Sequence record: PQ569687.1
Reading direction: 5' to 3' (one strand)
Length of the DNA: 64,000 nucleotides
Source: Klebsiella phage vB_Kpn_K54_rec1
A program made the translations under genes and the position numbers. The notes under the pieces were generated by a model that was given only the letters and a program-made list of their open reading frames with translations, was not told the origin of the DNA and ran no database searches. Below, piece after piece: positions 19,252 to 19,546 of the stretch. How positions within the stretch are numbered: position 1 is the stretch's first letter; each line of letters begins with the position of its first letter.

Positions 19252-19438
19252 AAACATTTTATGTACGGGCTGATGTCCTGAATATCGCCATATTCCCAAC
19301 GCAAGTACCAAGTGTTTGCGAGACACTCTGCCTGTACCATTCTGTAATAATCAGTTCTCGCGATAACCAATCTACGGAATCACACCCCAGTAGGTGCAGC
19401 AAGGTTTTAAGATTCTCAAACCCGTACATAAAATGTTT
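19252..19438. repeat. perfect 18-bp inverted repeat (AAACATTTTATGTACGGG / CCCGTACATAAAATGTTT) flanking a 151-bp spacer between two tRNA genes
   Basis: Positions 19252-19269 are the reverse complement of 19421-19438. The arms abut the 5' end of one tRNA and the CCA end of the next. Confidence 0.8.
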
Positions 19439-19546
19439 GGAGCAGGGTGGTGGAATCTAACCACCTATGTATTTAGCCGTACTGTTAGTTCTGGCGTATT
19501 TTTCAGGTCTGGCGGGACCTCGCGGTTGACAAACCGCCTACCCTGC
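19438..19546 (-). tRNA. elongated tRNA-like gene (about 109 nt), anticodon undetermined
   Basis: Acceptor GCAGGGT/ACCCTGC, D-arm GCGG-TTTGTCAA-CCGC, hairpin AGGTC-CCGCCA-GACCT, then about 38 extra nt, T-arm GGTGG-TTAGATT-CCACC, CCA encoded. Confidence 0.4.

Follow-up and report, generated by a model that had tools for sequence, protein, structure and literature searches.

An elongated tRNA-like RNA gene and an adjoining candidate structured RNA in the tRNA array of a Klebsiella phage

The transfer RNA (tRNA) array of Klebsiella phage vB_Kpn_K54_rec1 (sequence record PQ569687.1), a Mydovirus of the Vequintavirinae, contains within the 64,000 nucleotides analysed here (the window) a 109-nt element on the minus strand (positions 19438–19546) that has the acceptor, D and T arms of a tRNA, carries a long additional region ahead of its T arm and ends, with its CCA, in one arm of an 18-bp perfect inverted repeat. 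Comparison with homologues from other phages makes two conclusions highly probable: the element is a tRNA-like RNA gene, conserved and structured, and the inverted repeat forms an RNA helix that belongs to a second RNA gene, ~187 nt long. As to the role of the tRNA-like RNA, our preference, tentative and falling a little short of even confidence, goes to a tRNA mimic that would engage a tRNA-binding factor.

The presence of an elongated gene had been noticed in a sequence-only reading of the window, which described an acceptor GCAGGGT/ACCCTGC, a D-arm GCGG/CCGC, a T loop TTAGATT, an encoded CCA, a central hairpin AGGTC-CCGCCA-GACCT with a 6-nt loop and about 38 extra nt before the T arm. All of these are read on the minus strand, the 6-nt loop lying at 19515–19510 and the extra nucleotides numbering 39 by count (19504–19466); as to the D arm, GCGG/CCGC is present but the full stem is longer than had been stated, comprising 6 bp with a 4-nt loop. 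Read from 19546 to 19438, the minus strand is GCAGGGU AG GCGGUU UGUC AACCGC G AGGUC CCGCCA GACCU (39 nt) GGUGG UUAGAUU CCACC ACCCUGC U CCA, and the minimum free energy (MFE) fold of the 109 nt is a cloverleaf (z = −3.9). The model built for the family (R1) gives the window copy 114.5 bits, the next-best scores being those of ordinary tRNAs at ≤29 bits. The parts of the gene are the following.

19438..19546 (−): tRNA-like RNA gene, 109 nt, sole copy in the window of the family modelled as R1
19540..19546 with 19442–19448 (−): acceptor stem GCAGGGU/ACCCUGC, 7/7 paired in 32/32 variants, 5/7 pairs with double-sided changes
19522..19537 (−): D arm, 6-bp GCGGUU/AACCGC with 4-nt loop UGUC, preceded by A8 and G9
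19505..19520 (−): anticodon-like arm, 5-bp AGGUC/GACCU with 6-nt loop CCGCCA at 19510–19515
19466..19504 (−): extended variable region, 39 nt, made of a linker, a hairpin and a linker
19496–19504 (−): 5′ linker of the variable region, GAAAAAUAC, with a GAAAA motif kept in nearly all variants
19476–19495 (−): variable-region hairpin GCC...GGC, its stem covarying among relatives
19466–19475 (−): 3′ linker of the variable region, UAAAUACAUA, with the motif AAUACAUA kept in nearly all variants
19449..19465 (−): T arm GGUGG-UUAGAUU-CCACC, its loop canonical except for A56, two pairs covarying
19438..19441 (−): discriminator U73 and encoded CCA (19440–19438), the final A being also the first base of helix P1

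The upper half of the molecule is that of a canonical tRNA, with a 7-bp acceptor stem, a 5-bp T stem carrying a T-loop consensus and a 3′ NCCA end, the CCA being encoded in most variants but not in those of the rV5 type. Where a canonical tRNA has a 7-nt anticodon loop containing U33 above a stem of 5 bp, on the other hand, the window copy has the 6-nt CCGCCA with C33. Two departures from a standard tRNA are common to all variants, as judged from the alignment and from a table of the segments of 30 variants, namely an invariant A8 in place of U8 and a D arm of 6 bp with a 4-nt loop; although these core features deviate, the 19:56 elbow pair is retained and covaries. ARAGORN made no tRNA call for the gene, and the Rfam tRNA model RF00005 (gathering score 29 bits) found no match to it in a search of 14–24 kb at E ≤ 1; for the segment 19240–19560, which includes both RNAs, Rfam returned nothing even at E ≤ 10. 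Mimics of the transfer-messenger RNA (tmRNA) or YrlA kind were sought as well, with no tmRNA call by ARAGORN and no Rfam match in the region.

A blastn search with the 109 nt retrieved 65 phage records, 57 of which cover at least 80% of the query; they belong to Mydovirus, to Seunavirus (4MG, GAP31, SSE121, PVP-SE1), to Henunavirus (Erwinia phages Hena1 and pEp_SNUABM_01) and, in the Schitoviridae, to Salmonella phage UTK0002. A 100-nt version occurs in more than 100 rV5-like Vequintavirus records, a further query gave 171 records (the rV5-type and L035-type queries together find about 170), and motif scans added copies from IMG/VR and metagenomes; in 185,579 representative bacterial and archaeal genomes the family motif had 0 matches. 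The 32 distinct homologues, from rV5-, PVP-SE1-, Mydo- and Hena1-like phages, one N4-like phage and metagenomes, are 100–110 nt long with a variable region of 31–40 nt, and their identities go down to about 70%. Across phages the gene is 73–96% identical, compared with 61–100% for tRNA-Thr, tRNA-Leu and tRNA-Cys, a similar divergence.

Throughout this divergence the helices are preserved. In an alignment of 28 sequences (A3) 616/616 cells hold standard pairs and 11/22 pairs are changed on both sides; in the model-based alignment of the 32 distinct sequences (A5) 99.7% of 704 cells are paired, with double-sided changes in 12/22 pairs, compared with a pairing of only 34–50% when the 3′ partners are slid as a control. 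Within the D stem three pairs covary and the loop-proximal U14-A21 and U15-A20 are invariant. Furthermore, D-loop position 19 and T-loop position 56 change together, being G:C in 21 variants and U:A in 11, the window copy among the latter; this covariation supports a tRNA-like elbow contact and explains why the T loop UUAGAUU had appeared “unusual”. The hairpin of the variable region occurs in four unrelated sequence types, its stem being still paired through swaps such as GCC/GGC, GUC/GAC, AGC/GCU, CCCCC/GGGGG and ACGA/UCGU → ACGG/CCGU, and on either side of it the GAAAA(U) linker and the AAUACAUA linker, single-stranded stretches of 7 and 10 nt, are near-invariant. This maintenance of pairing by compensatory changes, in as many as 32 homologues of the R1 family, indicates a gene under selection and not a decaying pseudogene, so that the elongated gene originally noticed is in all likelihood a real one.

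The anticodon-like arm is short, and its type depends on the clade. Mydovirus and Seunavirus copies have a 5-bp stem and a 6-nt loop C-N-N-C-C-A (CAUCCA, CAGCCA, CCUCCA and CUUCCA in relatives), with C32, C35, C36 and A37 fixed, position 33 being A, C or U and position 34 U or G; the copies of the window, of FENT2 and of L033 (L-numbers are our handles for the compared loci) are identical over the 109 nt except at loop positions 33–34, which read CG, AU and UU, respectively. In Henunavirus, UTK0002 and several metagenomic lineages a 4-bp stem carries the loop YAUCAAA (A33, “UCA”), and in rV5-like phages the 4-bp stem carries UUUUUAA or UUUAUAA. Ordinary decoding is disfavoured by the 6-nt loop that lacks U33 (in other clades, by the conserved A33), by anticodon stems of only 4 bp and by the conservation of the single-stranded linkers.

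The loop types are of further interest with regard to aminoacylation. In bacteria the identity elements for Gly are U73, G1-C72, C2-G71, C35 and C36, and those for Lys are the anticodon and A73 (PMC9976931). The window copy, with its loop numbered C32 C33 G34 C35 C36 A37, possesses all five Gly elements; moreover, rV5-type copies combine the UUU loop with A73, and Mydovirus and Seunavirus copies NCC with U73. That loop and discriminator change together suggests that aminoacylation matters for this RNA.

The inverted repeat described in the sequence-only reading proved exact: its two 18-nt arms (19252–19269 and 19421–19438) are 100% complementary and 151 nt apart, the right arm beginning at the terminal A of the CCA and the left arm stopping one base before the 5′ end of tRNA-Leu at 19250. 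The hairpin segment folds with z = −3.3, and in the MFE fold the perfect duplex of 18 bp extends to about 22 pairs. These sequences delimit a second RNA with the following elements.

19252..19438 (−): ~187-nt structured RNA of family R2 (R2 score 176.4 bits), a second RNA gene closed by helix P1
19421..19438 (−): 5′ strand of P1, AAACAUUUUAUGUACGGG, the right arm of the inverted repeat
19252..19269 (−): 3′ strand of P1, CCCGUACAUAAAAUGUUU, the left arm of the inverted repeat
19304..19338 (−): P4 hairpin, stems covarying, its 7-nt loop CUCGCAA (19316–19322) resembling an anticodon loop
19280..19295 (−): P5 hairpin GAAUAU-GGCG-AUAUUC, tetraloop at 19286–19289, 6/6 pairs with double-sided changes

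An RNAalifold consensus of 13 sequences contains 50 pairs, 37 of them with compensatory changes; counted over 53 pairs, 93.2% of the cells are paired and 38 pairs show double-sided changes, against 37–46% pairing in slid controls. P1 itself has compensatory changes in 12/17 pairs, its 5′ arm reading AAACAUUUUAUGUACGGG in the window, AAAUCUAUUCUGCGAGG in KPP-1 and CACUAAUGUAUGGUCUUA in KP13-16, and the 151-nt interior contributes four further covarying helices. Since the arms of P1 change in sequence while staying complementary, selection appears to act on an RNA helix and not on terminal repeats of a DNA element. The loop of P4 has the consensus YUYGCAA and the tetraloop of P5 is GGCG; the CGC of the former is complementary to the GCG of the latter, and UTK0002 and L035 switch jointly to UGC/GCA, which suggests a loop–loop contact between P4 and P5.

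Homologues of the 187-nt RNA occupy the same position in PVP-SE1 (96% identical), FENT2, KPP-1, Ro1, pEp_SNUABM_01 and Hena1. It is found beside other tRNAs in unrelated phages as well: in UTK0002 the RNA follows tRNA-Asn, it is also present in metagenomic contigs, some of them N4-like in size (L016 648–809; L050; L051), and in Klebsiella phages KP13-16 (L047 586–770) and FBKp34 (L048), of the Stephanstirmvirinae, it is found between tRNA-His and tRNA-Gly without the tRNA-like gene. Judging from its occurrence in another subfamily without its usual companion, the 187-nt RNA is an independent, horizontally shared RNA gene. With its 38 covarying pairs, its suggested loop–loop contact and no Rfam family, it is a candidate new class of structured RNA of phage tRNA islands. 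A reading of its interior as a protein-coding gene was rejected: the 56-amino-acid open reading frame (ORF) at 19259–19429 (−) matches no Pfam or PHROG family and is shortened or ATG-less in 10/12 other homologues, being kept only in PVP-SE1, while in L030 the frame is open and the sequence diverges after residue 12.

The sequence-only reading had offered the pattern of repeat and abutting genes as an insertion or excision footprint or as a long processing hairpin. The former interpretation is abandoned, since the repeat is the P1 helix of a conserved RNA; a mobile element was likewise discarded, because the window has a single copy, the arms covary and neither a flanking direct repeat nor a target-site duplication was seen around them. 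No other occurrence of the arm sequence was found in the window with 3 mismatches allowed (chance expectation 0.07). The second interpretation fares better, for a long RNA hairpin with compensatory changes does lie between two tRNA-type genes, and “processing hairpin” may be partly right inasmuch as P1 places the ends of the RNA beside the flanking tRNA-type genes. P1 has, in structure, the features of a ribonuclease III (RNase III)-type stem, i.e., a long near-perfect duplex of sequences flanking what would be an excised RNA.

Whether the 151-bp segment is an indel had been raised as a question, and there may be some truth in this for the slot as such; the contents are covarying helices and not filler. 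Depending on the phage, different stem-closed modules fill the slot that separates the tRNA-like gene from tRNA-Leu, and at least three of them, the 187-nt RNA family included, are unrelated: Mydo-type phages have an unrelated module of 164 nt (z = −5.4) with a closing stem of ~24 bp (L003 753–916, minus strand), 4MG-type phages one of 191 nt containing a hairpin with a CUGAUCA loop (L007 611–801, plus strand), and FENT2 and PVP-SE1 two modules in tandem (cf. L014 and L004, downstream of the R2-family RNA). All modules found in the slot are closed by a duplex of 12–24 bp, and their junctions are similar, with AAACAU.UUUA at the start and UAAA.AUGUUU at the end. That the 187-nt RNA might be homologous to the modules of the Mydo type and the 4MG type was considered and dismissed, as R2 gives the latter at most 15 bits, and on the wrong strand; they are separate modules.

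Some further interpretations of details were examined and set aside. The AAUACAUA motif has partial complementarity to a neighbouring strand of P1 (UAUGUA) that is not kept in KPP1-type phages. The CCGCCA loop could form 5 bp with UGGCG of P5, a kissing contact that we consider a coincidence, PVP-SE1 having the same P5 yet a CAUCCA loop, without covariation. A loop-E motif (AGUA/GAA) in the type-A variable hairpin was dropped as a conserved function because it is absent from the other hairpin types. An intron within the variable region was rejected, there being no group I core and no bulge-helix-bulge and the insert being too small; bacteria are not known to splice at this position. Finally, three ORFs overlapping the tRNA-like gene have no Pfam or PHROG matches, and a protein-coding reading of them was rejected.

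What, then, could be the function of an RNA having the upper half of a tRNA and so unusual a lower half? The A8, the 6-bp D stem, the 6-nt loop without U33 and the 39-nt variable region incline us towards a mimic and away from a decoder. The alternative that deserves most attention, albeit rather unlikely in our estimate, is nevertheless an elongator or suppressor tRNA, functional although unusual and built somewhat like class II, which is aminoacylated as its anticodon and discriminator dictate and takes part in translation on the ribosome. The codons read would then be GGY (Gly) by the window copy, GGR by most relatives, AAR (Lys) by the rV5 type and UGA by the Hena1 type, an opal suppressor in that case, and their long variable region would be no more of an obstacle than those of tRNA-Leu, tRNA-Ser, tRNA-Tyr and tRNA-Sec. 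The co-change of anticodon and discriminator (UUU/A73, NCC/U73) is the strongest argument for such a decoder, whose canonical acceptor/T half, with the encoded CCA and the Gly identity elements of the window copy, would equally be suited to the purpose; yet a tRNA-Gly(UCC) and a tRNA-Lys(UUU), both canonical, are already present in the window by ARAGORN. The same ambivalence marks the individual types. The rV5-type 7-nt loop UUUUUAA is normal, several GenBank records call the gene tRNA-Lys, and no tRNA-Lys has been reported for rV5, but the stem below this loop, like that of the UCA type, has only 4 bp; Hena1-type copies are annotated as tRNA-sup(tca) and score, like that of UTK0002, 39 bits with the Rfam tRNA-Sec model, but A33 is conserved throughout their widespread YAUCAAA type, the 6-nt loops of Mydovirus and Seunavirus lack U33 except in L033, and the window copy is rejected by both ARAGORN and Rfam. 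Decoding would moreover leave the near-invariant linkers of 7 and 10 nt unexplained, as well as the A8 in place of U8, and a class-II Ser route is made unlikely by C2-G71, reported to act as an antideterminant for seryl-tRNA synthetase (SerRS) (PMC9976931).

Two other explanations take the tRNA shape as a means or as a relic. The gene could be a cis-acting element of processing or architecture which, together with the adjacent stem-closed RNA, directs cuts by RNase P, RNase III or RNase E that release the true tRNAs and which has no function once cleaved. The tight packing among tRNAs, with spacers of 0–6 nt, the 12–24-bp duplex closing each module of the slot and the likeness of the module junctions would all agree with this; we judge it improbable, as a mere handle needs neither conserved linkers nor a clade-fixed anticodon-like loop nor a 19:56 elbow pair, as the gene is kept beside different neighbours (tRNA-Thr, downstream of it, in rV5-type phages; tRNA-Asn in UTK0002) and as adjacent tRNAs elsewhere in the array manage, 6–8 nt apart by ARAGORN, without such elements. 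Hardly credible at all is a tRNA pseudogene that has suffered an insertion of ~35 nt and a 1-nt deletion in its loop, the inverted repeat being the footprint or the terminal repeats of a small mobile DNA element. Rejection by tRNA finders, the aberrant 6–8 nt loops that a neighbouring gene likewise has in relatives, and the gain, loss and exchange of modules in the adjacent slot could be quoted in its favour, and decay had indeed been named at the outset as the outcome that relatives with a canonical tRNA would reveal. The relatives turned out, however, to keep a gene of 100–110 nt, full length in four genera, an N4-like phage and contigs from metagenomes, and nearly all of its helix cells are paired, with many compensatory changes; the extra nucleotides have near-invariant flanks and a covarying hairpin, the arms of the repeat covary instead of keeping their sequence and exist in one copy in the window with no target-site duplication around them, and the homologues, with identities as low as those given above, are not recent copies of one sequence.

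The mimic is not free of difficulties either, and several observations weigh against it. The 64-kb window offers no pairing target for AAUACAUA; with UUUUUAA the rV5 type has a 7-nt loop of normal build, and no tRNA-Lys has been reported for rV5; no single known identity set accommodates the copies of the Av-05 type (UAU with U73 or C73) or those of the UCA type (U73); the match of anticodon and discriminator to Gly and Lys could equally mean that these are real decoders; and the variability at positions 33–34 could reflect a relaxed constraint instead of an arms race.

If the mimic is nonetheless taken as a working premise, the following course of events can be envisaged. The transcript would fold as independent domains in series, i.e., tRNA-Thr, the tRNA-like RNA, the P1-closed 187-nt RNA and tRNA-Leu. 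Because RNase P identifies its substrates by the acceptor/T helix and the 3′ RCCA, the tRNA-like RNA, with its canonical acceptor/T half and U73-CCA end, should be processed by this enzyme and also undergo 3′-trimming or CCA-repair, and a stable 109-nt RNA should accumulate. The predicted RNase P cuts fall at the 5′ ends of two genes, the tRNA-like RNA and tRNA-Leu; given that P1 sets the RNA ends beside these genes, the latter cut is predicted to free the 3′ end of the 187-nt RNA, both termini of which would be held and protected in P1, and trimming would leave the tRNA-like RNA with its encoded CCA as the 3′ end. In this phage the host glycyl-tRNA synthetase (GlyRS) may charge it with Gly, as predicted from its identity set, and contact with a tRNA-binding factor would be made through the anticodon-like loop and the extended variable region, so that the RNA would not be an ordinary decoder but might, for instance, divert a host enzyme that targets tRNAs, as a sink or decoy. 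Candidate partners can be named only by analogy with known tRNA-directed defences, such as anticodon nucleases of the PrrC/RloC type, AriB of PARIS, retron effectors, Schlafen, OLD and Cas12a3 (PMC10264068, PMC11464382, PMC11555353, PMC13056530, PMC12445682, PMC12851939).

A more specific version, which we rate as distinctly doubtful, sees in the RNA a possibly glycylated mimic unfit for decoding whose loop baits or sequesters a host enzyme directed at tRNAs, either an immune nuclease or a modification enzyme. Were it true, the differences of the loop between genera (Lys-like with UUUUUAA, UCA-type with YAUCAAA, Gly-like with NCC) and the hypervariability of positions 33–34 would be the traces of an arms race over the cleavage site of anticodon nucleases. 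A rarer variant of this idea is that the 6-nt-loop copies of the Gly type are natural doublet decoders promoting −1 frameshifting at GGN codons. Whichever of the two held, the neighbouring 187-nt RNA would represent a further, independent and undescribed class of functional RNA of phage tRNA islands.

The surroundings of the two RNAs are those of a tRNA operon. ARAGORN finds 22 tRNA genes in the window, all on the minus strand, 20 of them at 14.9–19.6 kb and two near 22.8 kb; the tRNA-like gene lies inside this array between tRNA-Thr(UGU) and the second structured RNA, beyond which comes tRNA-Leu(UAA). No terminator-like site was found on the minus strand between tRNA-Thr and tRNA-Cys. The flanking features are these.

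19553..19627 (−): tRNA-Thr(UGU), next gene upstream and transcribed in the same direction (ARAGORN; Rfam tRNA 54.1 bits)
19173..19250 (−): tRNA-Leu(UAA), immediately downstream of the structured RNA (ARAGORN; Rfam tRNA 38.5 bits)
19722..19750 (−): candidate sigma-70-like promoter TTGAAA-17-TAAAAT, 10/12 matches by consensus scan only, upstream of tRNA-Thr

Other irregular genes are found in the same array. At 17577–17681 (−) there is another elongated tRNA-like gene of ~104 nt, probably the one counted as the first in the sequence-only reading; it has an acceptor GGGUAUC/GAUGCCC, A73-CCA, a T arm GUUCG-UUCGAAU-CGGAC, a normal-looking D arm and ~45 nt extra in mid-sequence, its fold has a z of only −1.6, and it receives no ARAGORN or Rfam call. 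Three more tRNA-type genes without an ARAGORN call lie at 16620–16710, 17498–17566 and 19088–19166 (all −); they are a 91-nt Ser(UGA)-like gene (30.5 bits with the Rfam tRNA-Sec model), a Trp(CCA)-like gene (27.3 bits with the same model) and a 79-nt gene (Rfam tRNA 34.9 bits) in the place of which relatives have tRNA-Arg(UCU) or “tRNA-OTHER”. Where the window has only 19547–19552 between tRNA-Thr and the tRNA-like gene, relatives have a 75-nt gene (L001 1056–1130, L003 1029–1103, L004 1613–1688) with fast-changing, aberrant anticodon loops, namely ACGAUA (6 nt), AAGAUUC (A33, U37), ACAGAUCC (8 nt) and CUGCGCA; the CAAU at both junctions suggests that the window lost this gene by a microhomology deletion. 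The array (window 19173–19627 compared with L001–L009) is a mosaic gene by gene: with PVP-SE1 the window shares 100% identity in tRNA-Thr but only 73% in the tRNA-like gene, and the latter differs at only two positions from that of FENT2, annotated as a Seunavirus. This mosaicism suggests cassette-like recombination within tRNA arrays. Both RNAs are also present in L035, a metagenomic phage contig of 152 kb in which ARAGORN calls an amber-suppressor-like tRNA-Pyl(cta) at 7862–7934.

Annotation pipelines miss the tRNA-like gene or name it inconsistently, the existing labels being none at all, hypothetical coding sequence (CDS), tRNA-OTHER, tRNA-Lys and tRNA-TERM/sup(tca). Over the 1.2 kb tested, the window is 100% identical to Klebsiella phage vB_Kpl_K54lambda1.1.1, a Mydovirus. 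In the public record OY979426.1 the segment 68176–72376, equivalent to ~17300–21500 of the window, bears only CDS of “unknown function”, mostly pseudo, with no tRNAs over 4.2 kb, both RNAs included. The paper on the rV5 genome lists six tRNAs, does not mention the tRNA-like element and reports no tRNA-Lys (PMC3606486), although rV5, with so few reported tRNAs, retains the element. A search of the literature on phage tRNA-like RNAs, suppressor tRNAs of the Vequintavirinae, the tRNAs of rV5 and PVP-SE1 and anti-defence tRNA-like RNAs found no description of the family.

Whether the tRNA arrays of large lytic phages serve to supply codons or to replace host tRNAs destroyed by immune nucleases is under debate (PMC10264068, PMC11464382, PMC11555353). 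The present family would be a third kind of occupant of these arrays, in which the shape of a tRNA is under clear selection across a phage subfamily while the lower half breaks the rules of decoding and the extra region is conserved; the gene is small, clonable and carried by well-studied therapeutic phages (rV5, PVP-SE1, Klebsiella mydoviruses).

Among the systems with which it may be compared, the anti-defence tRNAs of T5 are likewise phage-encoded members of tRNA arrays, and the rV5-type copy shows a tRNA-Lys-like UUUUUAA loop. The tRNA-Lys of T5 acts against AriB of PARIS (PMC11464382) and its tRNA-Tyr against retron effectors (PMC10264068, PMC11555353), their anticodon stem-loops being unlike those of the host tRNAs. 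These T5 tRNAs are otherwise canonical and functional and replace the cleaved host species, whereas the tRNA-like RNA has an aberrant core and loop. With the class II tRNAs (Leu, Ser, Tyr) it shares a fifth hairpin between anticodon arm and T arm. Class II variable arms are, however, much shorter and nearly flush with the core, unlike a region of 31–40 nt with conserved single-stranded linkers of 7 and 10 nt; further differences are U73 in place of A73/G73, the non-canonical anticodon loop and the reported SerRS antideterminant C2-G71 (PMC9976931).

Another resemblance in outline is that to bacterial tRNA-Sec (RF01852) and related tRNAs of unusual cloverleaf structure. In tRNA-Sec, too, a long extra arm is combined with a D arm of 6 bp and a 4-nt loop, and the loop of the E. 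coli molecule, CUUCAAA, departs from the widespread YAUCAAA only at position 33. Membership in this family was nevertheless rejected, for the acceptor/T helix is 7/5 and not 8/5, U73 stands in place of G73 and A33 in place of U33, and the 39 bits of the Hena1 and UTK0002 copies on RF01852 are below the gathering threshold of 47, ordinary tRNA-Ser and tRNA-Tyr of the same loci reaching 30–43 bits; the window copy, with its CCGCCA loop, has no match to this model.

By analogy of setting and layout, T4 species 1 RNA (rnaC) is the nearest functional analogue of the tRNA-like RNA. Species 1 and species 2 (rnaD) are stable non-tRNA RNAs inside a phage tRNA operon that abut tRNA genes and have no known function. 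In rnaC (139 nt) an A/U-rich linker and a hairpin are followed, in the same layout, by a T arm CCGGG-UUCGAAU-CCCGG and an acceptor-like 3′ strand. The acceptor pairing is, on the other hand, imperfect (5/7 by eye), the 6-bp/4-nt D arm, the anticodon-like arm and the AAUACAUA motif are not seen there, and R1 gives the T4 tRNA region only 8.4 bits (E = 5.7), so that homology to rnaC or rnaD is not detectable and was discarded.

For the 187-nt RNA the nearest parallels, again by analogy, are ROOL and GOLLD, large structured RNAs of phages and prophages located by tRNA islands, GOLLD reaching >800 nt (PMC12286853). They have in common with it that they are phage-encoded, highly structured and placed in or by tRNA arrays, a genomic niche that the three would thus share; they are far larger and of unrelated architecture, the 187-nt RNA having no Rfam match. 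For tRNA-like RNAs in phage tRNA clusters a precedent exists; here the structure and its conservation are unusually clear, the anatomy of the lower half is odd, and a candidate new RNA family accompanies the gene.

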